DNA of 53,278 bases from Nanobdellota archaeon (GTDB taxonomy: Archaea; Nanobdellota; Nanobdellia; Pacearchaeales; GW2011-AR1). Under the pieces are notes generated by a model, which made no database searches, was not told where the DNA came from, and worked only from the letters and a program-made list of their open reading frames with translations. The stretch spans positions 1 through 53,278 of the forward strand of contig JBBTBG010000004.1 in the NCBI GenBank assembly GCA_038043805.1. Direction: 5' to 3'. Below, piece after piece: positions 2,893-50,005 of this stretch. Position 1 is the stretch's first letter, and the number at the start of each line of letters is the position of its first letter. The translations under genes were made by a program, and so were the position numbers.

Positions 2893-3657
2893 TTAGGATG
2901 TTGAAAATTGACTATAAGGGAAGACATGAGCAAGATAACTCTCTTGAATCTTTTCTTGAAATTCTTCAACGCGCTCATCTGGAACGAGTAACTGCTTAAG
3001 GCTCAACCAAATTTCCAAAGGACCTTCATGTAGAATACCTTCTGACTTGCCGTTAATAAAAGAATGTCCATGGATTTCGCAGATTTTGCTGTCTAAACCA
3101 ATAATCACTCTTTCATGAGGATCTTCTGCATCGTAGCTTGCTGCACTTAGAGGGTGGGCTCCAAAACAGACATCATAAGCATGTCCAAACTCATATAAGT
3201 GAGAATCATCAGAAGCAATGATTCCCATTTCAATCATCTTGGCGCGAGACATCCACTTGGGACCGCAAGGCTTTCCATCAGGGAATTCCTGCATATCTTT
3301 ATGCATCTCCCCACTAACTAGTTTTTTCTGGCGCACAAGATCAAGGGCAGGATAAATAATTCCATCTTGAAGAATAGAATGAAGAGCGGCTGCACTCGTG
3401 CCGTGATAAAGGTATCCAGCTTTTGCATCAAATCGGGGAGAAGGAAGCCCCTGCTCATTGAAAGTATAATCGCCAAAAGAAATAGTTTTATTAAAATTGG
3501 CAAAGGGCGAGCCATAAGGTTTATTTTTCAAAGGTAAGTGAAGAGGAAGAGAATAAGGATCTCTATCAAAATCAAAACAAAGAGGTTGAGCTTTATTTTT
3601 TTGAAAAGCAGCTAGGATATCTTTCAGAGTGATGGAAGGTTGTATAGACTCATTCAT
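2893..3657 (-). CDS. Hypothetical protein
   Basis: 254-aa ORF with no overlapping competitor of similar size. It has a YHGTS motif, but no family can be assigned from sequence alone. Confidence 0.55.
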   Translation of the reverse strand: MNESIQPSITLKDILAAFQKNKAQPLCFDFDRDPYSLPLHLPLKNKPYGSPFANFNKTISFGDYTFNEQGLPSPRFDAKAGYLYHGTSAAALHSILQDGIIYPALDLVRQKKLVSGEMHKDMQEFPDGKPCGPKWMSRAKMIEMGIIASDDSHLYEFGHAYDVCFGAHPLSAASYDAEDPHERVIIGLDSKICEIHGHSFINGKSEGILHEGPLEIWLSLKQLLVPDERVEEFQEKIQESYLAHVFPYSQFSTS

Positions 3658-3757
3658 TCTTTAAAGAATAAGATAGGCTATTTAAATCTTTCTAATGTAG
3701 TCACTAGTAAGAGATAACAATAATAAGATTTAAATACTTCAAAAGCCTGTAAAAAAT

Positions 3758-4215: not shown

Positions 4216-4889
4216 ATGCTAGACCAAATCATCATATATGTTAAAGATGCTTTCAGAGAGCATCCAGGGCAGATCAGACATTTTGAGAGAACGCTCTACT
4301 GGTTAAGAGAGTATCATGCAGAAGCAGATGAGGCTTTTCAAATTGCAGCGTACGCGCATGACATTGAGCGTGCAACGAAAAACGAATAGATTGCCAGAAT
4401 TCCCTTGCTGAGTCAACATGGATATCGTGACCCTGAATTTCTTAAGTATCATCAAGAGCAAGGAGCTAGAGTAATTAAGGAATTTTTACAATCAGAAAAA
4501 CGATGCGCCACCTCACCTTAAAAGGTGAGGTTTGAATAGGCGCTCGTTTTTTGGATGCTCAAGGAACAACTCCAGCTTAAAAGCTGGAGTTTGCGTCAAG
4601 TTCCTTGACATCACATGCATACCCTGTGACTCTCTGCGATCGCGTTCATAGTTTAGTAGCAGCACATGAAGTCGGAGGAGATTTTGAACAAAAACTGTTG
4701 AAAGATTGTGATAGCATGAGTTTCTTTGAAACACAAGTCGATGGATTTGTCACAAAAAAAGTTCCTGAGTTAGGCGTAGTAAAAGTGCGTGATAAATTTG
4801 ACTGGATGTTTAATCGTATCTCTGATTCTAACATACAACATCAAGTGCGGAATCTTTACCAAGGAGCAATTAACCGGCTCCCATTATAA
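4216..4889 (+). pseudogene. HD-domain protein gene interrupted by an in-frame TAG (4387-4389) and by a 119-nt family A element
   Basis: ATG at 4216 reads ...AAYAHDIERATKNE, then TAG, then continues in the same frame as IARIPLLSQHGYRDPEFLKYHQEQGARVIKEFLQS up to 4494. The C-terminal part (HAYPVTLCDRVHSLVAAHEVGGDFEQKLLKDCDSMSFFE...) is in a different frame from 4614. Deleting 4495-4613 (119 nt, 2 mod 3) joins the two frames. Confidence 0.6.
4495..4613 (+). mobile_element. Family A structured insertion element, copy 1 (119 nt)
   Basis: Basal stem 4496-4503/4544-4551 plus GCGC/GCGC (4505-4508/4540-4543). Hairpin 4511-4517/4524-4530. Conserved joint TTTGAATAG, linker TGGATGCTC, second stem 4561-4567/4600-4606, tail GACATCA. 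Preceded by AATCA. Homologous to 24165-24271 and 46599-46691. Confidence 0.75.
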
Positions 4890-18202: not shown

Positions 18203-19081
18203 TTACATTTTATAATCTTGGATATATCTCTTAAAAAACCAATTAAGAAATGGAGAATCATCCCTCTTGAGCTGGCTTCTTTCAAGTGAGGTGTAATAGC
18301 TATTTCTTTTAGTATATGGAATATCCAACATAGGATATCCATGTTTATGGAAGACAAAGTTCATCATAAGTCTAGATATTCTGCCATTTCCATCTCCAAA
18401 GGGATGTATTGTTACCCATTTTAGATGTACTAAAGCAGCCAACTCGACAGGATTTAGTTTATCTTTACTTTTATTATACCAGTCAAAGAAGTCTTTAATG
18501 AGAAAATCCAATTCGGCAGGCATGGGAGGAACATATTTACTTAAGGAAATGCCTACTTGATAATTTCTAATTCTTCCAGCAGCATCCTGCTTTGTTTTTT
18601 CAAATAATTTTTTATGCCAATATAATACTATTTGCAAAGAAAGCTCTTTTTTATATGATAACATCTCATGAAATACTCTATTATGTTCTTCTGCTTCTAT
18701 TACATCATTTATGGGCTTCTCATTGGGAGTTATTCCTCTTTCAAGTAAATTTGAAGTGTCTTTCAAGCTCAAAGTTGAACCCTCTATCTTTTGAGTGTTA
18801 TAAGTGAATTTTACTGCAAAAGTTTCTCTTTGTTTAGCTCGAGAAGAAGGAGGCGTTATCTTTTGCTCTTGAAGATATCTTTTCTTTATTTGCTCAAAGT
18901 CCGAGAACCACTTTTCTTTATAGAGCTCGATAACGAATTGCCTTTTTATCTTATCAATGTCTTTAGGTATCTCTTTTCCAAGATATTTCTCTTTCTTAAT
19001 AACTTTATTGCCTTCCCGCACACTATGTTCAAGATAGTAATATGTCTGTTCTCCCGTTTTCTTTTCTCTTATAGTTACCAT
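18203..19081 (-). CDS. Fic domain protein (AMPylase family)
   Basis: Canonical Fic motif HPFGDGNGRISR. Confidence 0.9.
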   Translation of the reverse strand: MVTIREKKTGEQTYYYLEHSVREGNKVIKKEKYLGKEIPKDIDKIKRQFVIELYKEKWFSDFEQIKKRYLQEQKITPPSSRAKQRETFAVKFTYNTQKIEGSTLSLKDTSNLLERGITPNEKPINDVIEAEEHNRVFHEMLSYKKELSLQIVLYWHKKLFEKTKQDAAGRIRNYQVGISLSKYVPPMPAELDFLIKDFFDWYNKSKDKLNPVELAALVHLKWVTIHPFGDGNGRISRLMMNFVFHKHGYPMLDIPYTKRNSYYTSLERSQLKRDDSPFLNWFFKRYIQDYKM

Positions 19082-21135: not shown

Positions 21136-22131
21136 TCATTTCTCTCTACTGAGATAGTCATAAATGGTTCTTGAAACAGCACTCATAACACGGTCGGATT
21201 CTTCTTGCGTGCTGTTTTTACTCATCATGCACAAAAGGTAGTTCTTTTTAGGAAGATAAATAATGCCGCAGTCATGGAAGATTTTTTCTTCCCTGTTGAT
21301 ACCTACTTTATGTGCTACTTTAACGTCTGGAGGCAGGCCTGCAGGAATTTGGGAGGTAAATTCAGTATGAAGAAGCAAAGAAAGTGCAAATTCTGAGAAG
21401 GGTCGACGGAGGTAGCTCGAGATATAGAGGGAGCGGAAGAGGTTAATATATTCTTTAGGGGTTACAGTTGTAATGTCATTCTCAGGAGGAGGCAGACCAA
21501 GGGAAGCCATGGTTTCTAGATAGTCTTCATAGGAGGTATATCTGCTTGCAAGGGCACGGGACAGCCGTATTATCCGATTGTTCAATCATGACTTTAAGTA
21601 GGTCTTTAAGTTGCATTTGATGTCCTGAACCTTTTTTATACAATGTTCCTGAAGATGGATCAAGATCTTCTTCTCGAAGAGTTATTGTTTCATCAAGAGA
21701 AAGATCTCCTCTTTCCACTTTCTTAAGGATCGTCATTGCTAAGGGAACTTTGAAAAGGCTTTGAGGAATAAATTTTTCTCTTTCATTATATCCTACCCAC
21801 GCACCTGATTGAAGGTCTTCATAATATAATCCATAGAAACCACTAACGTTCTTGGTAAGGAGAGGAACAAGCATCGATTTTAAGTCAGCATATGAAAGGT
21901 CATACGATTTCTGTCTTTCTACAAACTCTTGAGCATTGAGCAATGCGATATCTGGGAAATGAGTTTAAAATCTCCTTTATCTGGAGAAGAAGTCTTGGAA
22001 AACACATACAAGGTAGTAGCAATAAAAAAAAGATTAAGGATCAAAAGAATAGAAATGATCAGAAGCGCCCTTTCCTTAAACACCCTAATAATACGTAGTT
22101 CAGAAACAACAGGAAAAGAAGGAGTATCCAC
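21136..22131 (-). pseudogene. Class A beta-lactamase-like serine hydrolase split by frameshift(s)
   Basis: SxxK (SLFK) and SDN (EQSDNTA) motifs lie in ORF 21527-21943. The frame breaks right after SDNTA, and the remainder (LSRALASRY...KVAHKVGI, a KTG-like motif) continues in ORF 21136-21585. A TM-anchor ORF (21919-22131) overlaps the 5' part in a third frame. Confidence 0.6.
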
Positions 22132-23506: not shown

Positions 23507-23806
23507 CTACTTCATCACATCTATAAAAGTCTTACAGAATTTTTCTTTAGCTACGAGTAACACTTTTTTTCCTAACGGGGTAAGATGGTAGACAATATTC
23601 CGACCTTCTTTTTTTTCTTGGATTAGACCCTCTTCTTTTAGAGATTTGAGCGCAGGGTAGATCGTACCCGGGCTTGGACGGTCACCTTTACGTTTTTCCA
23701 GTTCATCTGCCAACTCTTGCCCATGCATGGTTTTTTTGGAAAGCATGAACAAGATAAGGAATGAAAGCATACCTCTCATATCACAACAATATTCCTTTTC
23801 GTTCAT
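23507..23806 (-). CDS. PadR family transcriptional regulator
   Basis: 99-aa protein with MHGQELADELEKRKGDRPSPGTIYPALKSLKEEGLI, typical of PadR wHTH. Confidence 0.85.
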   Translation of the reverse strand: MNEKEYCCDMRGMLSFLILFMLSKKTMHGQELADELEKRKGDRPSPGTIYPALKSLKEEGLIQEKKEGRNIVYHLTPLGKKVLLVAKEKFCKTFIDVMK

Positions 23807-23818
23807 ACATTTATTGGG

Positions 23819-23871
23819 TGACCGATATATTTAAATATAACTACCTTCCTATATATCGCATGACCGATATA
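23819..23871. promoter_or_regulatory. Repeated TGACCGATATA motif (x2) plus an inverted ATATATCG in the PadR divergent intergenic region
   Basis: TGACCGATATA at 23819-23829 and 23861-23871. ATATATCG (23851-23858) is the reverse complement of CGATATAT (23823-23830). Confidence 0.45.
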
Positions 23872-23979
23872 GTCATCTTCGTACGAAAACAAGAAGTGAA
23901 ACTTCAAGAATACTCTTATATTCACCAATTCTTGACAGTTGTCAAAAATTGGAAATCTTTGAAAGGAGGTGATGATACG

Positions 23980-24147
23980 ATGAATAGTTGTGACTACGGA
24001 TCTTGCTCTTCAGTCTGCCTCTCTGCAGATTCTCGCAGGTTTTTCACACGCGAGGAAAAACTAGAGATGTTAAAGGAATACAAGGAAGCTTTGGAGAAAG
24101 AGACTCAAGGCGTAAAAGAACGGATTACAGAACTCGAGAAGAAGTAA
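23980..24147 (+). CDS. Small Cys-containing coiled-coil protein (DUF5320-like), divergent partner of PadR
   Basis: GGAGGTGA lies 8 nt upstream of the ATG at 23980. MNSCDYGSCSS... is followed by EEKLEMLKEYKEALEKE coiled coil. Confidence 0.5.
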   Translation: MNSCDYGSCSSVCLSADSRRFFTREEKLEMLKEYKEALEKETQGVKERITELEKK

Positions 24148-24164: not shown

Positions 24165-24271
24165 TTATGTCGGGAACCGACGAAAACCACGTCATTCATG
24201 GCGTGGTGGTTCCCGAGCATCTCCAAAAACGAGCGCCTATTCAAACCACGGCTTTTAGCGCATCGTTTTTA
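24165..24271 (-). mobile_element. Family A structured insertion element, copy 2 (107 nt, intergenic, first hairpin largely deleted)
   Basis: The reverse complement reads AATCA|TAAAAACGATGCGC-TAAAAGCCGTGG-TTTGAATAGGCGCTCGTTTTTGGAGATGCTC-GGGAACC...GGTTCCC-GACATAA. Confidence 0.7.
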
Positions 24272-24347
24272 TGATTTATTTTTTTCTTTGTCTGAAAATA
24301 AGAGTTATGCGTTCTTCTGTTATTTTTTCAAGATAATGAAAAGGTTT

Positions 24348-24671
24348 TTATGCTACTTCAGACTCCAGATTTTTTGTTAAATCTCTTAATTCTTCAGGCG
24401 TTGCCGGTCTAAGTTCTGCTAATACAGGAATGTTAAGTGTGCGCGCCAGTTCTTGTTGCATTCTTCTCATCTCAAACACTGTTTCTTTATATCTTTCAAA
24501 AGAACCTTCAGGCACAGTAAATTTGGTATGTCTAAAGCTCTTACTGGGATCATATCCTTTTTCAAATCTCATTACTAAAAATCCATTTAGACAAATACCT
24601 TCTGCTCTCTTTAGGTGATAAATCATAGGGCTTCCTACAATTTCTGGAAAGTAATAGAGATCTTCTTCCAT
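24348..24671 (-). CDS. Hypothetical protein
   Basis: 107-aa ORF. Confidence 0.45.
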   Translation of the reverse strand: MEEDLYYFPEIVGSPMIYHLKRAEGICLNGFLVMRFEKGYDPSKSFRHTKFTVPEGSFERYKETVFEMRRMQQELARTLNIPVLAELRPATPEELRDLTKNLESEVA

Positions 24672-28347: not shown

Positions 28348-28683
28348 TTAATCTCCTCCTCCGCCTCCACCATCTCCACCACATCCACCTCCGCTATCTC
28401 CCCAATCGCTTCCACCACCAAAGTATGTAAAGAACGAGGATGAATCGCAGCTTCCCGAATATCTTGAAGACCTTCTGTTTAGTTTGGCAAGTTTGTAGAT
28501 ACAGGTTCCTACAACTAGAGCACATAGTCCCATTGTTGCGCCTAGGCATATTTTTTCACCGAGTGTCAATCCATCAGCTTGTTCTGCCTTTGCCTCAAGG
28601 TTACTCTGCGCATACACAGGGAGCGTAAGTACTGCAGTTATACCTACTTGACAAGATCTACTAATAAATTCTTGGAGTTTCAT
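28348..28683 (-). CDS. Bitopic membrane protein with a Gly/Cys-rich tail ending in GGGGGGD (paralog B)
   Basis: I take the start at MKLQEFISR (28683), 1 nt after the stop of paralog A. It shares LPxYxQSNL, GLT(L/I)GE, a TM segment and a C-terminal CGG.DGGGGGGD with the upstream gene. Confidence 0.6.
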   Translation of the reverse strand: MKLQEFISRSCQVGITAVLTLPVYAQSNLEAKAEQADGLTLGEKICLGATMGLCALVVGTCIYKLAKLNRRSSRYSGSCDSSSFFTYFGGGSDWGDSGGGCGGDGGGGGGD

Positions 28684-28684
28684 T

Positions 28685-29356
28685 TTAGTCTCCTCCACCT
28701 CCACCGCCATCACATCCACCTCCACAGTCGCTACTTCCACTACTACCACAGTCATATCCTCCAGAGTCATGGGAAGAGTGAGAATCAATATGGGAATGAG
28801 AACTCCCAAAATGCTGATGCGAGTGATCTTGATGTGTATGAGGACGTTTGGGCTCTTCAGCTTCAAGCAAGGGATGATGTTGAGGAACAGGATGTTGATA
28901 GTTTTGTGAGCGTTCAAGCTCCTCTTGATGCAGATTTCTTTGAAGGAAAGAATTATTGAGAGCAGGGTCTACGAGATCTGCTACGAGATCTGTTAAAGAA
29001 GATCCTGCATCTACGAAGGGAGTCTCATCTCCTTTGTCTTTTCTTCTTGATGCATAGGTTCCAGAAGAGTATTGTGATGGGGTGCGGGAAGATAATGCTC
29101 GCGAATCTCTATGAGATTGGTCTTTTTTAGCCTGATGTTTTTTATAGAAGTGTCTAATTCCAGTATATACAAGTGCACTCAGTCCCGCAAGGAGTGTACC
29201 TCCTGCAAGGAGTTCTCCGATTGTCAACCCATGTATGGGCGGTGCATCAAGATTGAGATTGCTCTGCGGATACATGGGGAGCATAAGGGAGCTTGTAATC
29301 GCTGTCTGATAAGTTCTCTGGAGTGTTGTTCCGTTAAGTTTTTTTTGTAGCGTCAT
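28685..29356 (-). CDS. Bitopic membrane protein with a His/Ser/Cys/Gly-rich tail ending in GGGGGGD (paralog A)
   Basis: 223-aa ORF: signal-like N-terminus, one TM segment (LLAGGTLLAGLSALVYTGI), His-rich stretch HTHQDHSHQHFGSSHSHIDSHSSHDS, then CGSSGSSDCGGGCDGGGGGGD. Confidence 0.65.
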   Translation of the reverse strand: MTLQKKLNGTTLQRTYQTAITSSLMLPMYPQSNLNLDAPPIHGLTIGELLAGGTLLAGLSALVYTGIRHFYKKHQAKKDQSHRDSRALSSRTPSQYSSGTYASRRKDKGDETPFVDAGSSLTDLVADLVDPALNNSFLQRNLHQEELERSQNYQHPVPQHHPLLEAEEPKRPHTHQDHSHQHFGSSHSHIDSHSSHDSGGYDCGSSGSSDCGGGCDGGGGGGD

Positions 29357-37732: not shown

Positions 37733-38569
37733 ATGGAGAAGAAAAAGGGGAAAGAAAAGCCTAGTCCCACTCGCACCCCATTACGCAAGATCACAGACCC
37801 CAAAGACATTGCCAGAGAATTTGCAATTAAAGTGCATGAGAAATTTGATCGAACGGTAAAAGCATCTATTTTATTTGGGTCTCAGGCAAAAGATTCTGCC
37901 AAGGTGGGTTCAGATATCGATATCATTCTAATTATTGATGACGCTTCAATCAACTGGGATCTCGAGCTCATTTCATGGTATCGGGAAGAGCTAGCAAAGA
38001 TCATAGAAAATTATAACGAAAAGGCAGACTTACACATCAATACTGTAAAGCTTACGACTTGGTGGCAAGACTTAATGTACGGCGATCCCGTTGTGATTAA
38101 TATTCTTCGCTATGGAGAAGCACTCATAGACATCGGAGGGTTTTTCAATCCTCTCAAGGCGCTTCTTCTTAAAGGAAAAATTCATTCTACTCCAGAGGCC
38201 ATATACGCCGCACTCCAGCGTGCACCAGGCCATCTTTCACGAAGCAAATACGCAGAAATGAGCGCCATCGAAGGTATTTATTGGTGCATGACGGATTCAG
38301 CACAGGCAGCACTCATGACTGCAGGCAAAGTCCCTCCCTCACCGGAACAAATTCCCCTTATGCTCAAAGAAATATTTGTTGATAAAGGAATGTTGAACAT
38401 GGATGCAGTCAAGGCAATGCGAGATCTCTACACAATTCACAAAGGAATTTTACATCACGAAATAGCAGAAGTCAAGGGTGCAGATATTGACCGATGGCAA
38501 GTCGTTGCAGAAAAGTTTCTTAAAGACATGACTTCAATTATTGATAAGCTTATAGAACAGCAAAAATAA
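37733..38569 (+). CDS. Minimal nucleotidyltransferase domain protein with a helical C-terminal domain
   Basis: FGSQAKDSAKVGSDIDIILIIDD (GS...DxD NTase signature). The core is paralogous to 48083-50005. Confidence 0.75.
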   Translation: MEKKKGKEKPSPTRTPLRKITDPKDIAREFAIKVHEKFDRTVKASILFGSQAKDSAKVGSDIDIILIIDDASINWDLELISWYREELAKIIENYNEKADLHINTVKLTTWWQDLMYGDPVVINILRYGEALIDIGGFFNPLKALLLKGKIHSTPEAIYAALQRAPGHLSRSKYAEMSAIEGIYWCMTDSAQAALMTAGKVPPSPEQIPLMLKEIFVDKGMLNMDAVKAMRDLYTIHKGILHHEIAEVKGADIDRWQVVAEKFLKDMTSIIDKLIEQQK

Positions 38570-46239: not shown

Positions 46240-46458
46240 TTACAATCCTTCTACCGCTTGTTCAATAAGACGAGAGACAGAAGAACCCTTAGCTTTGCTT
46301 ACTTCTTTAAGTTTCTTAATAGTACGCAAGGGAAGGGTAATATCTATACGCTTTCGTTTCCACAATTTCTCTCGTGTCTGGTCATAATGCTCCAGCTCCA
46401 TGAAATCTTGCTTGTACTTCTCAAAAATGTATTTGATATATTCTTCAGTGAATGACAT
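46240..46458 (-). CDS. Ribbon-helix-helix (CopG-like) protein, candidate antitoxin
   Basis: C-terminal IDITLPLRTIKKLKEVSKAKGSSVSRLIEQAV fits the RHH pattern. 14-nt overlap with the Doc gene. Confidence 0.6.
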   Translation of the reverse strand: MSFTEEYIKYIFEKYKQDFMELEHYDQTREKLWKRKRIDITLPLRTIKKLKEVSKAKGSSVSRLIEQAVEGL

Positions 46459-46879
46459 GTTTCAACCTCTCTGCAATAACGCGAATGTCACTAATATTTT
46501 TAGAAGCGATGGAAAGCATATGATGTTTGAGTAATTCTCGATCAACAGTTTTTTTGTGTTGATCAGCAAAGGCAAATGTTATAAACATGGCTGTTTTTTT
46601 ATGTCGGGGATCGACGGTCGCTCCCCGAGCATCCAAAGCACGAGCGCTTCCCCAAACCCCATCCTTTAGGATGGAGTGCGCATCGTGCTTTTGATTTCCA
46701 TCACTAAAGGGATGGTCAATTAAAATGGCTCGCATAAGATAGGCAAGTTTTTTGTAAATGCCTAATTTCTTTCTCTGCTGTTGATCGAGGGCAAAATCAA
46801 GGCTTGAGCTATTACTAAGAGTACCTCCAAATCCAAGAGCAATTCTACTAATGTCTTCCTTACTAATATTCATACACAT
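46445..46879 (-). CDS. doc: Doc (Fic-fold) toxin gene carrying an in-frame 93-nt family A element inside the catalytic motif
   Basis: HPFSDGNQK-[31 inserted codons]-TAMFITFAF. Removing 46599-46691 gives HPFSDGNQKTAMF, matching the length and pattern of HPFxDGNKRTA. Confidence 0.7.
   Translation of the reverse strand: MCMNISKEDISRIALGFGGTLSNSSSLDFALDQQQRKKLGIYKKLAYLMRAILIDHPFSDGNQKHDAHSILKDGVWGSARALDARGATVDPRHKKTAMFITFAFADQHKKTVDRELLKHHMLSIASKNISDIRVIAERLKHVIH
46599..46691 (-). mobile_element. Family A structured insertion element, copy 3 (93 nt)
   Basis: The minus strand reads AATCA|AAAGCACGA-T-GCGC-AC-TCCATCC-TAAA-GGATGGGG-TTTGGGGAA-GCGC-TCGTGCTTT-GGATGCTC-GGGGA-GCGACCGTCGA-TCCCC-GACATAA. 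Confidence 0.75.
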
Positions 46880-46969: not shown

Positions 46970-47572
46970 TTAGAGCTCACGAAATTTAACTCTATGCTTC
47001 TGAAGAGCTTCTCGAATTGCAGAAGCATCCTTTACATTAACAAAAAGTACATTTGAAAGTTTATCTATATTCAACGAAGAAACAATTCCTTCTCGTCGGT
47101 AAACTTTTTTGCCTTTCTTAAGGGTATAACCATAGAGCTCACGAAGTACAGCCATTTTCTGATGTTGTTTCAAGGAAGAAAGGTCGTATGAAATAAGAAC
47201 GTTATCCCCCTCTCTCTTCTCAAAAGAACACTTTCCATAAATAAGGATCCCATAAGCAGTTAATTCTCTTCGTAGTTCATTCCACTGTTCACTCTGCAAG
47301 TCACCTACAAGTACTGAAAGGGGAAGGGTAATCCCCCTCAATTTCCAAGTTTTTTCAGAGCGAAGTTCAAATTCATTGACAGCTTCTCGACAGAACGATT
47401 GTATCTCTCCGATTAGTTTATTATCGTTGATATCAATAAACAAGTCAACATCAGAGTCTTTTTTCTGTTCTCCACGCGCTACACTCCCAAAAAGAGTAAT
47501 ACTTCTTATTTTTTCTCTATCTTTTAACTTATCAAAGAAGACAGAAAGAAAATCATAAACATAAGCGAGCAT
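46970..47572 (-). CDS. Minimal nucleotidyltransferase (MNT-type)
   Basis: LFGSVARGEQKKDSDVDLFIDI signature. I take the start at MLAYVYD (47572), 1 nt after the stop of the upstream gene. Confidence 0.75.
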   Translation of the reverse strand: MLAYVYDFLSVFFDKLKDREKIRSITLFGSVARGEQKKDSDVDLFIDINDNKLIGEIQSFCREAVNEFELRSEKTWKLRGITLPLSVLVGDLQSEQWNELRRELTAYGILIYGKCSFEKREGDNVLISYDLSSLKQHQKMAVLRELYGYTLKKGKKVYRREGIVSSLNIDKLSNVLFVNVKDASAIREALQKHRVKFREL

Positions 47573-47573
47573 G

Positions 47574-47966
47574 CTACATTTTCTCCTCAAGTAGTTTTTG
47601 TAATGCAAATAACAATTCAATAGCTTCTTCCGCTTCTCTGGCTTCTTTATCTCTACCATAACAGAGGCGATTTCTTAATTCTTCAATACGAACAAGCTTC
47701 TTAAGAATGTCTTCTTTGTGGTTAAAGGCAAAAGAAAATGTATTCTCCGATCGTTTTTCAGATGCAAAAAAAGAATGGTTCACGTGAAATCCAGGAGGTA
47801 TTAAGAGATGTTCATGTAGGAAAATTGCAAAAAGATTCGTCGCTGCTTCAGAAACGGCAAATCCTATAATTTTTTGTCGTTGAACAACCAATCCAAGACG
47901 AATCTTTTCTTCGATGTCATCTATAAGTTCCTTTACAATTTTCTGATGTTCTTCAATGGAAGGCAT
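47574..47966 (-). CDS. Helical HEPN-like partner of the MNT (no clear RxxxxH motif)
   Basis: 130-aa helical ORF directly upstream of the NTase. I take the start at MPSIEEHQK (47966) because a TATA-like TTATATATA lies ~21 nt upstream on the minus strand. Confidence 0.45.
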   Translation of the reverse strand: MPSIEEHQKIVKELIDDIEEKIRLGLVVQRQKIIGFAVSEAATNLFAIFLHEHLLIPPGFHVNHSFFASEKRSENTFSFAFNHKEDILKKLVRIEELRNRLCYGRDKEAREAEEAIELLFALQKLLEEKM

Positions 47967-48082: not shown

Positions 48083-50005
48083 TTACAATTCCAGCTCAAA
48101 CTTCCCTAATTCTTTCTCTAACACTTTAAACAATTCTCCAGAAATCTTCGTCGTTAATTTCCCCTTATTCTCAGAAAGTGCTTTATCAAATTCTTCTTGA
48201 GTAGACGTAACTAGCTTTCCATCGCTAACTTTACGGATATCCTTTCCCTCAATAATGAAATTAATGTTGCCAAGCAAAACAACCTCAGCTTTTCTGTTCC
48301 CTGCATAGGTAATCTGCACAAGTCCCTTTTCAGTCTTCACAAGGTCAGCACGTTGAGCATATTCCACGAGAGCATTAATCAGCTCCAAAGCGTCTTTACG
48401 CACACGGTCACTCTCAAGGGCATCCATCTTTCCAGAGGATACTTTACTCTTGAGGTTTACAAGTTCTTTCATTACCAAAGAGAATCTTCCCGAAATCTTA
48501 CCTTTCTTGATCATCTGAGTTTCAAACTGTTTAACAAGCTCAGGAGCAGGATGCTGTCCAAAGAACGTCTTCAGTAAACCAAACACTTCATTGTACAACT
48601 CTTGCGCTGTTTTTTGTTGGAGATTCTTCTCAATCTTTTTGCGCAGTTCCTTGAGCATAGCATTATATTCTTTTGTCTCCTTAAGAAAAGCATCCAGCTC
48701 TTTGCCAGAAAATTCTTTTAATTTACCGTATTCATACTGTTTGAAATAGTGCACAGCCTTCTCCAACGTTTTTAAATTTCCATCTGTCATGACCTTCATC
48801 TGATCGACAAACACTTTTTTAACATCTGCGACAATAGTTTTAGGCACAGGCGGCGCTTCTCCCGTAAGCATCATCAGTGCTTGCGTCGGAGTAACAACTC
48901 CATAATAGATATCTACCATAATATCCAGCATTTTTCTCTTTACAATCTCTTCAGTCTGTTCTCCCTGCTTCATATAGAGATCAATTGCTTCAGGGCTTGG
49001 CTTAATACGCCCCATTTTTAACAATAATTTCCATGGGATAAACGTTCCTCGATCATAGAGAGGTATACCATCACGAATAAATGTAAATGCGACAGGTTCT
49101 GCATCTTTTACTCTCTGCCAGAAGTCAGTCAATAACCACACCTGTACATTGAGTATATTCTTCACACCTGCCAATGCATTCGCTTCTCTAATAAAATCAT
49201 GTACGATAATATTTCTCAATCTCTCAAGCAAGTCAATACGCGACATACGTTTTACATCAGTATCATCGATAATGATAAAGACATCAACATCACTGTCTTT
49301 TCCAGCTGTTCCTCGAACAAGACTTCCTCCAACGACATAACTGGCAACATATTTATCGAATTTTCTCAACGAAAGAGACTTGTGAATGTTCGCAACTCTC
49401 AATGCGCCAAGAAATCCCGAATCATGTAATGGAAACATCGCGCTAATTGCATCTAAGAACTCATATTTGCTGTCAAGACCATAGTTCCACAAATCTATAG
49501 GTGTCTTTATGAGAACCCAAAGATTTTCTCCTGTCTCTTTTGCCATCTTAATAATTTCTGGCTTAATCTTAGGAACATTTTTGTACTGCTCTTCAGGAAT
49601 AATAACTAATGCATATAATGGCCTTGTATCTGCAATCTCTTTAGGGATCTGCTCATCTTCTTCAAACATCGGAGCTGCCTGCGCAGGCAATATTCCAAAT
49701 GCAATAGTAAATCTATATTTCTTCACAATATTTTTCTTCAATCCTTCTAATTTCTGCTTTACTTTCTCAAAATCAATCGCTTGTGGTTGAGATTGTTGTG
49801 GAACCATCATTCCAGGAGGAATTCCTGCAGCTAGAGGCATTCCAGCAGATGGCGACATTTTTCCAGGAAGCATTCCCAAAGAAGATATTGACGGCAAAGA
49901 GGGAAGAGCAACACCTTTATTCATCCCTTGAATGCTAGGAATGTAAACTTGAGATTTCTCTTCTTTGCCCTTTTCACTCTTCGCAGAAGTCTTATCTTTA
50001 CTCAT
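48083..50005 (-). CDS. Large nucleotidyltransferase-domain protein with a Pro/Met/Gly-rich N-terminus
   Basis: VVGGSLVRGTAGKDSDVDVFIIIDD NTase signature. The ~230-aa core is paralogous to 37733-38569 (shared ...W...GRIKPSPEAI / GKIHSTPEAI, PPVPKTI / PPSPEQI). Confidence 0.75.
   Translation of the reverse strand: MSKDKTSAKSEKGKEEKSQVYIPSIQGMNKGVALPSLPSISSLGMLPGKMSPSAGMPLAAGIPPGMMVPQQSQPQAIDFEKVKQKLEGLKKNIVKKYRFTIAFGILPAQAAPMFEEDEQIPKEIADTRPLYALVIIPEEQYKNVPKIKPEIIKMAKETGENLWVLIKTPIDLWNYGLDSKYEFLDAISAMFPLHDSGFLGALRVANIHKSLSLRKFDKYVASYVVGGSLVRGTAGKDSDVDVFIIIDDTDVKRMSRIDLLERLRNIIVHDFIREANALAGVKNILNVQVWLLTDFWQRVKDAEPVAFTFIRDGIPLYDRGTFIPWKLLLKMGRIKPSPEAIDLYMKQGEQTEEIVKRKMLDIMVDIYYGVVTPTQALMMLTGEAPPVPKTIVADVKKVFVDQMKVMTDGNLKTLEKAVHYFKQYEYGKLKEFSGKELDAFLKETKEYNAMLKELRKKIEKNLQQKTAQELYNEVFGLLKTFFGQHPAPELVKQFETQMIKKGKISGRFSLVMKELVNLKSKVSSGKMDALESDRVRKDALELINALVEYAQRADLVKTEKGLVQITYAGNRKAEVVLLGNINFIIEGKDIRKVSDGKLVTSTQEEFDKALSENKGKLTTKISGELFKVLEKELGKFELEL

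Follow-up and report, generated by a model that had tools for sequence, protein, structure and literature searches.

A two-hairpin repeat of DPANN archaea with the traits of a small non-autonomous mobile element

The complete 53,278-nucleotide (nt) contig JBBTBG010000004.1 of a Nanobdellota archaeon (GenBank assembly GCA_038043805.1), which we analyzed over its whole length and refer to as the window, carries an ordinary set of DPANN genes, such as those for TyrRS, archaeosine TGT and L10e. Dispersed among these genes are three copies of a short repeat built of two adjacent hairpin domains, which a first-pass annotation made from the sequence alone had pointed out. The pattern ACGATGCGC-N(8-38)-GCGCTCGT-N(5-9)-GATGCTC matched at these three places only, where 100 shuffles gave an expectation of 0.00. 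A covariance model run over the whole window with filters off, for which the training set included some of the window's own copies, scored copies 1, 3 and 2 at 141, 93 and 84 bits, respectively, and the next best place at 19.6 bits. All three copies fold more stably than dinucleotide shuffles (z = -10.1, -4.2 and -5.6 for copies 1, 2 and 3), and their complementary strands fold about equally well. The copies, the parts of copy 1 and the two genes concerned are as follows.

4216-4889, + strand: DUF4202/HD-domain gene broken by copy 1 (Pfam), which also has an in-frame TAG
4491-4492, + strand: target AT to the left of copy 1 (the flank logo has an invariant AT at each junction, and empty sites have a single AT)
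4493-4611, + strand: copy 1, full-length, 119 nt, CA...GACAT, in sense orientation within the DUF4202/HD-domain gene (fold; 141 bits)
4495-4552, + strand: left module (domain 1) of copy 1 (fold and covariation)
4553-4560, + strand: joint between the modules of copy 1, GGATGCTC, invariant in 39 of 39 aligned copies
4561-4611, + strand: right module (domain 2) of copy 1 (fold; likeness to the left module z = 4.2 against shuffles)
4610-4611, + strand: second AT at copy 1, the last two bases of the inserted unit
24167-24273, - strand: copy 2, 107 nt, intergenic, between the convergent open reading frames (ORFs) 23761-24147 (+) and 24348-24671 (-) (84 bits)
46445-46879, - strand: Doc/Fic-family gene interrupted in frame by copy 3 (Pfam Fic, E = 7e-7 on the restored protein)
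46601-46693, - strand: copy 3, 93 nt or 31 codons without in-frame stops, in sense orientation in the Fic motif HPFSDGN^KKTA of the Doc-type toxin gene (a caret marks the point of insertion here and below) (93 bits)

Copy 1 puts stop codons into the reading frame of the DUF4202/HD-domain gene. Excision of its 119 nt joins ...KEFLQ^SHAYPVTL..., and the Pfam DUF4202/HD match then spans the junction. The same gene bears a second lesion, the in-frame TAG at 4387-4389, through which the Pfam alignment continues, and it is probably a pseudogene that arose before or after the arrival of copy 1. Copy 3 lengthens the product of the interrupted Doc gene (P0001), which is annotated with 142 amino acids as opposed to 111-113 for most of the relatives listed, and its 31 residues, placed between N and K of the catalytic motif HPFSDGN-KK, very probably inactivate the Doc toxin. 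The role of the element in the window is that of a passenger, with one gene broken, one Doc catalytic motif split and one copy lying between genes. The surroundings of copy 3 are rich in genes of the toxin-antitoxin type, and the interrupted Doc gene is overlapped by an ORF of 72 amino acids (46240-46458) that may encode an antitoxin. Two Fic/Doc genes are present in the window, one at 18203-19081 and the interrupted one within 46240-46879.

The inserted unit runs from CA to GACAT beside a single pre-existing AT (4493-4611, 24167-24273 and 46601-46693), which lies 2 nt leftward, in element orientation, of the coordinates given in the first-pass annotation. Three lines of evidence define these boundaries. 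Copies that are otherwise identical have different bases after GACAT, which assigns this base to the flank. None of 20 Doc homologues with 67-77% identity contains the 31-residue insert; 19 of them read DGN-KK/KR-TA and one (P0058) reads DGK-NK-TA, so that Asn is followed by K and never by Q, which places the insert between N and K. The earlier boundaries would restore GN-Q-K, found in 0 of the 20 homologues. At the DNA level, a metagenome locus (L249, Ga0180007_10032926; 3.9 kb) contains a segment of about 110 nt three times, twice empty as TTGTTAGAT^AATTAATATCC and once occupied, with CAAAAAAACGATGCGCC...CTCCCGACAT inserted between TTGTTAGAT and AATTAATATCC, and so offers a paralogous empty-site comparison. 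This repeated segment is itself intergenic, reads GCTTTGTTTAAAAAGTAT...GGGATATTTAACAAATTAAAGAAAATTTTGAC, and lies at about 2223-2331 and 3568-3676 in addition to the occupied copy.

Among 83 unique sites, AT-CA-(A/C)AAA(A/G)N precedes ACGATGCGC, and GACAT is followed by N-A-N-A-A. The AT is invariant; A stands at +2 in 80 of the 83 sites and at -4 in 59, and is also favoured at +4 and +5, resulting in an A-rich target consensus of AAWAT^aANAAaa that resembles the joined element ends, GACAT^CAAAAAA, on both sides of the cut. AATCA had been proposed as the target, with an element end of CATNA. This assignment is excluded by the Doc homologues, the empty site and the varying base after GACAT: the element itself begins with CA, AT alone being target sequence, and a single AT without CA is what both the empty site and the Doc homologues show. 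Because the single AT of the empty site contrasts with an AT on either side of the insert in the occupied one, any target duplication amounts to at most the 2 base pairs (bp) AT. The junctions are compatible with AT^CA...CAT^ without duplication, with insertion between A and T, and with a 2-bp AT duplication.

The left module of copy 1 has GAAAAACGA/TCGTTTTTT as its basal stem, together with a bulged T, a second stem of GCGC/GCGC, an inner hairpin whose loop is TAAAA, and the internal loop TTTGAATAG on the 3' side. The right module has an outer stem AAGGAAC/GTTCCTT, an inner hairpin CTCCAGC-TTAAAA-GCTGGAG, an internal loop TTTGCGTCA and the invariant end GACAT, the terminal CAT(C) being paired with GATG of the joint in the fold. 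Inner hairpin 1 of copy 2 is missing its 5' arm, and domain 2 of copy 3 has no inner hairpin; judged by their sequences, both copies are internal-deletion derivatives of a canonical element of 118-121 nt (mode 120). We aligned 39 distinct copies and found ATCA, ACGATGCG(C), GTTTG, GCGCTCGT, GATGCTC and GACAT to be invariant or nearly so, whereas the four helices vary with compensation. Pairing is retained in 97.3% of the cells, and 20 of the 36 pairs changed on both sides (213 cells). The covariation score of 0.408 compares with 0.145 for shuffled columns and 0.04-0.09 for slid partners; in the left module, the covariation lies in alignment columns 5/65, 8/62 and 9/61 and in the inner hairpin. 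Even within one genome, the stems differ between subfamilies and the joints are constant. The alignment thus shows the hairpin structure, rather than the stem sequence, as what selection has maintained.

Both modules follow a canonical plan of GATGC, an outer stem, an inner hairpin with a TTAAAA-type loop, and GTTT with a short loop. They share these parts, with a loop of the CTTAAAAG type, at a likeness of z = 3.3-5.4, and from this likeness the element looks like two related ends joined back to back. Oligo-T runs follow 3' of the left module. There are no terminal inverted repeats, as the 5' end CAAAAAACGATGCGCC finds no complement at the 3' end ...GTTCCTTGACAT, and the pairing is entirely within the modules. 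The first-pass annotation had anticipated much of this description: the three copies with their two-hairpin build are recovered by the pattern scan, the folds and the covariance model; its stem differences (AAAAACGA/TCGTTTTT as opposed to AAAGCACGA/TCGTGCTTT, the variants of hairpins 1 and 2, and the T.G wobble in copy 3) are correct; and co-varying stems with invariant junctions and the absence of inverted terminal repeats both hold in the sequences, the folds and the 39-copy alignment. As a separate candidate, an H/ACA or K-turn small RNA, suggested by a 3' ACA, was rejected for want of a two-sided pseudouridylation pocket and of a GA/AG motif in the sequence.

The repeat is widespread beyond the window. 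Scanning one genome per prokaryotic species with the pattern returned 98 stretches, 81 archaeal and 17 bacterial. The archaeal stretches lie on AT-rich contigs of 21 DPANN metagenome-assembled genomes (MAGs) labelled Pacearchaeota, Woesearchaeota or Nanoarchaeota, whereas the bacterial ones are GC-rich chance matches lacking the flanking signature. The covariance model found about 100 copies in 635 kb of fetched loci, and more than 120 further stretches with the element came from metagenome contigs. Viral contigs gave no match to the full pattern, and the left end alone met only chance GC-rich matches there. The Pacearchaeota MAG VGKP01 alone accounts for at least 43 copies, among which two subfamilies are represented by 11 and 9 identical ones. 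Three of its copies are chimeras that combine domain 1 of one subfamily with domain 2 of the other (L039:2404-2526, L095:1559-1678 and L010:5537-5656), which suggests that the two modules recombine or are exchanged as independent units. In the protein database, five short hypothetical proteins, and no others, contain an element-derived peptide, and the translated element matched no Pfam family. A cyanobacterial origin had been considered because of a GCGATCGC site; the genome scan, which gave DPANN MAGs, ruled it out.

We next consider where the copies lie relative to genes. A site was counted as genic if exact excision restored a long ORF, and 114 unique sites were examined. Only 18 of these (16%) were genic, compared with 68% of random positions (p = 4e-30), leaving 84% intergenic. 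Seven genic copies are in sense and 11 in antisense orientation, and insertion is independent of gene orientation. Lengths divisible by three are found in 15 of the 18 genic copies and in 50 of the 96 others (p = 0.018). This enrichment, together with the depletion in genes, is what purifying selection on random DNA insertions would leave. About a third of the genic copies are read through in frame, whereas the others introduce stops. After excision, Pfam domains extend across the junction for the sense insertions in RNase_T, HAD, EamA, Fic/Doc and DUF4202/HD genes and for the antisense insertions in NUDIX and HMUDK_hel genes; for an antisense insertion in a gene for a MutS-like protein, a weak MutS_V match below the cutoff lies beside the junction and not across it.

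The many non-orthologous sites, the paralogous empty site, the insertions in genes and the near-identical copies within one genome establish mobility. Only two pairs of sites in divergent genomes have homologous flanks on both sides, and these are ambiguous, so that most copies reflect transposition rather than inheritance. The earlier view of a structured, non-coding, mobile family with real compensatory changes is therefore upheld, and we are highly confident that the repeat is a mobile non-autonomous DNA element. The more specific statement, that it is a DPANN-specific, hairpin-ended miniature inverted-repeat transposable element (MITE) without its own transposase, of the type of the palindrome-associated transposable elements (PATEs), moved in trans by an HUH-type enzyme, is in our estimation evenly balanced. 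Taken by itself, the attribution of movement to an HUH or other single-strand DNA enzyme remains tentative, and we would place it somewhat below even chances. Under this proposal, the two hairpin modules would act as left and right ends, and insertion next to an AT in an A-rich site would give AT[CA...GAC]AT. A transposase acting in trans, most likely of the Y1 HUH type (IS200/IS605-like or RAYT-like) and working by single-strand "peel and paste", would read the hairpins in their single-stranded DNA form. This enzyme would cut after ...AT in the left flank and a second time after GACAT, and its recognition or guide elements would be the bulged base and the invariant segments GATGC and GACAT. 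IS200/IS605 is the most widespread family of insertion sequences (IS) in archaea (PMC13343696). The orientation of neighbouring copies is weakly in keeping with strand-specific, replication-linked insertion: adjacent copies on contigs form 19 pairs of the same and 5 of different orientation (p = 0.007), with 9 of 9 alike on one 53-kb contig, and the top strand of the element is more often on the C-rich strand and antisense to genes.

A number of observations weigh against an HUH-type mover. Measured against GC skew and gene strand, the bias in orientation is modest, and it comes from non-independent copies. In agreement with the first-pass annotation, no transposase was found in the window, where Pfam detected no transposase domain in the 50 larger ORFs. 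All-against-all clustering of the ORFs from the first 635 kb of loci gave no repeated transposase-like ORF, and a crude screen for TnpB zinc-ribbon, Y1 HUH...Y and serine-recombinase motifs found none in 1.3 Mb of DPANN flanks. No left end without an adjacent right end occurs in the loci, and a search of the metagenome contigs for the left end followed by a non-G base had 0 matches, although ordinary copies are numerous there. This search for a partner covered the window, the flanks of the loci and the metagenome contigs rather than whole genomes, and absence of a partner is accordingly unproven. The information on both sides of the target and its resemblance to GACAT^CAAAAA are not predicted for a Y1 enzyme of the IS608 type and are more in keeping with a site-specific recombinase. 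The hairpins of the two modules fall short of near-identity, and, unlike in IS608, the left outer stem begins only 1-2 nt from the end. Furthermore, the candidate guide bases never vary, which makes an IS608-type pairing between guide and cleavage site not demonstrable. The suggestion of single-stranded hairpins read by an HUH-type transposase is hence retained as the best guess, whereas membership in IS200/IS605, for which no TnpA/TnpB partner with these ends was found, is unproven.

The two-sided target would also suit a different kind of movement, that of a double-stranded circle inserted by a site-specific recombinase, IS607-like serine or another with a 2-bp crossover, in which the joined ends GAC-AT-CAAAAA recombine with look-alike AT sites. 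IS607 elements insert at or next to a fixed dinucleotide with a duplication of 0 or 2 bp. The AT at either junction and its single occurrence in the empty site, together with the mimicry of the right-left junction by AAWAT^aANAAaa on both sides of the cut, would suit a 2-bp crossover at least as well as an HUH enzyme, and the crude motif screens saw no IS200/IS605 genes near any copy. However, the stems vary freely with compensation even within one genome, which argues that a folded single strand rather than a duplex is recognized; the self-complementary AT would not fix the orientation for a serine recombinase; the clustering of orientations by contig is not expected on double-stranded DNA; and the 1.3 Mb of flanks contained no recombinase motif. 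We regard a recombinase as rather unlikely. We would put in the same range the view that the mover falls outside the recognized prokaryotic transposase families, or that the element is removed or bypassed after transcription, either of which would explain an abundant, cross-order family for which no transposase, whether of IS200/IS605, IS607 or another type, was seen beside any of the more than 100 copies. A candidate for such a mover would be an unrecognized single-copy nuclease, encoded by DPANN archaea or by a virus, that reads the two Y-shaped single-strand modules and cuts at AT^NA.

The conservation of the joints, which stay invariant across MAGs of Pace-, Woese- and Nanoarchaeota as the stems drift, could instead reflect service to the cell. 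The repeat would then be a long-lived, partly domesticated hairpin repeat comparable to REPINs, kept by a single-copy host gene (a RAYT-like HUH or other enzyme), and it may act as a terminator, an RNA-stability element or a protein-binding site. Such an arrangement would explain both the cross-order conservation and the lack of an IS-like master copy, no autonomous copy of that kind having been seen in 1.3 Mb, and it agrees with the 84% of intergenic sites, the oligo-T runs after the left module and the two site pairs with homologous flanks in divergent genomes. Several real genes knocked out in one MAG and bursts of identical copies are, however, traits of a selfish element, nearly all sites are non-orthologous, and the motif screen of 1.3 Mb detected no HUH-like ORF; to our knowledge, RAYTs occur in bacteria only. 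We consider domestication improbable. Far less probable still is that the functional form is RNA, be it a structured RNA, a self-cleaving or self-splicing element, or an intron for the archaeal splicing endonuclease, so that insertions in genes would be harmless. The strong folding with covariation and the many real genes interrupted in a reduced genome speak for it, as does the acceptance of non-canonical introns by DPANN endonucleases (PMC5829648). But an element removed from mRNA must lie in sense orientation, and 11 of the 18 genic copies are antisense, 7 being sense; genic sites are strongly depleted, and the gene of copy 1 has an in-frame stop as well. The stems are 96% Watson-Crick, and G:T pairs (33) do not significantly exceed A:C pairs (22), which correspond to G:U on the other strand (p = 0.18). 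Copy 3 does contain the G-T pair that had been read as a sign of the strand, but the family as a whole has no such bias. Folds and alignment revealed no bulge-helix-bulge at the junctions, which lie at helix bases, and only 1-nt bulges. In a scan of the window against Rfam 15, only 4 tRNAs pass, and the best score on copy 1 is 23.4 bits against a gathering threshold of 102 bits, in line with the earlier statement that no known ribozyme or intron core was recognized. Both gene orientations, the missing G:U bias, the junction structure and Rfam led us to reject the intron, ribozyme and bulge-helix-bulge readings, and the structured-RNA option of the first-pass annotation is not supported: the repeat is a DNA transposable element, not an intron or ribozyme.

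Other small repeats are associated with copies of the element. Double-hairpin elements of about 52 nt, CCTCRAGGA...TCCTYGATG-GCA-GTCAAGAAT...ATTCTTGATGAG, are nested in some copies, usually directly after GCTTAAA in the hairpin loop. By analogy with SMR-A in the PATEs of Haloquadratum (PMC3119063), they are regarded as a second, smaller mobile family that targets the first. Another small hairpin family, starting with CACAAAAC(C/T)CTTCGGGTTTTA..., abuts the GACAT end of element copies; the 5'-CA(A/C)AAA start common to this family and the element suggests that several families use the same insertion machinery. The loci concerned are as follows.

L065:2134-2307, - strand: nested element of about 52 nt
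L076:4549-4719, + strand: nested element of about 52 nt
L003:6300-6640, + strand: nested element of about 52 nt
L066:6841-6979, + strand: nested element of about 52 nt
L025, about 3100, - strand: nested element of about 52 nt
L069, about 3322-3390, - strand: small family abutting GACAT
L086, about 4584-4650, - strand: small family abutting GACAT
L001, about 1925, - strand: small family abutting GACAT

The window has some further features. A Beta-lactamase2-family gene is split on the - strand into 21136-21510 and 21527-21874, covering profile positions 131-213 and 1-91, the central part of the domain being absent. It represents either another broken gene or a split one, and the hairpin element has no part in it. 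Three nucleotidyltransferase genes (NTP_transf_2/Polbeta) lie at 37733-38569, 46970-47659 and 48083-50005. CTCC/ACC-rich low-complexity direct repeats at 28350-28750 (-/+) run through two adjacent ORFs with Gly/Asp/Ser-rich tails and are unrelated to the element.

DPANN archaea have some of the smallest cellular genomes. Our results indicate that such genomes can carry bursts of a tiny structured parasite, which in one MAG has reached 43 copies or more and has inactivated several real genes, and that this family is conserved across Pace-, Woese- and Nanoarchaeota. The model of sequence and structure permits masking and annotation of repeats that give rise to spurious ORFs, split genes and odd protein insertions such as the 31 residues in Doc, and the element could be used as a marker for insertion polymorphism at the strain level. 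Its CA...GACAT ends, GATGC joints and AT^NA target are a bait for the transposase, possibly a novel enzyme of the HUH type or another that acts on single-stranded DNA; finding this enzyme could raise the value of the family. As in Haloquadratum, the nesting of mini-elements suggests that hairpin parasites form a community with more than one layer.

Among known systems, the element is best compared with the PATEs of Haloquadratum walsbyi, which are derived from IS200/IS605 and have SMR-A elements nested in them (PMC3119063). Like PATEs, it encodes no protein, lacks terminal inverted repeats, has mutually similar palindromes near both ends, causes no demonstrable target duplication, shows a short conserved sequence at the 5' junction, and has palindromes invaded by smaller mobile repeats (PMC3119063). 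It differs in that no IS605-type transposon with its ends was found, in that its target comprises no more than an AT in A-rich surroundings and is informative to either side of the cut, and in being a compact 120-nt pair of Y-shaped modules hosted by DPANN archaea rather than haloarchaea. PATEs insert 3' of a specific sequence of 4-6 nt that lies in the left flank alone; the left flank of the DPANN element reads AAWAT, and its right flank is constrained as well. Four of the five PATE criteria agree with the element or are compatible with it, whereas the fifth, ends shared with a TnpA/TnpB transposon, is lacking, and for this reason we do not file it as a proven derivative of IS200/IS605. IS608 and ISDra2, which are mobilized by Y1 HUH transposases, share with it subterminal hairpins with a bulged base, a short fixed sequence 5' of the insertion point, precise integration in the absence of inverted repeats and an orientation bias along the chromosome; the DPANN element has no TnpA/TnpB, and its target is conserved on the 3' side, which is unexpected for IS608. 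The same dinucleotide AT at both ends and in the target recalls IS607-type elements, for which hairpin covariation is not expected and of which no recombinase motif was found.

Resemblance to Helitron and IS91 elements (Y2 HUH) arises only under the placement A^TC...GACA^T, by which insertion between A and T, a 5'-TC, a hairpin before the 3' end and the lack of inverted repeats and duplication would be common to both; this likeness hangs on the 2-nt boundary ambiguity, the 3' end is GACA rather than CTRR, and no Rep gene was seen. We know of no RepHel or IS91 transposase in these archaea. REP/REPIN sequences with their RAYTs are likewise abundant, mainly intergenic hairpin repeats without a gene of their own, vary in a structure-preserving manner and, possibly like the DPANN element, depend on a single-copy HUH gene. 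However, REPINs are bacterial and consist of two inverted REPs that form one long hairpin, in contrast to the two tandem modules, the defined CA...GACAT ends and the insertions in genes of the DPANN element. Classical MITEs (Sulfolobus SM, Nezha and Correia) are also small, non-autonomous and multi-copy and are mobilized in trans, but they have terminal inverted repeats and a target duplication of fixed length, whereas the DPANN element lacks the former and duplicates AT at most. A census of MITEs based on terminal inverted repeats placed a Woesearchaeal genome among the MITE-densest archaeal genomes (PMC11602168). The Rickettsia palindromic elements (PMC10969869), palindromes of about 100-150 nt found between genes and in frame within proteins of reduced genomes, are comparable in setting, and the mover is known for neither family; the two have no sequence relation, and only about a third of the genic copies of the DPANN element are read through. 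A literature search found no description of a DPANN hairpin element of about 120 nt, and the element represents a new, previously undescribed family that behaves like a hairpin MITE or PATE.

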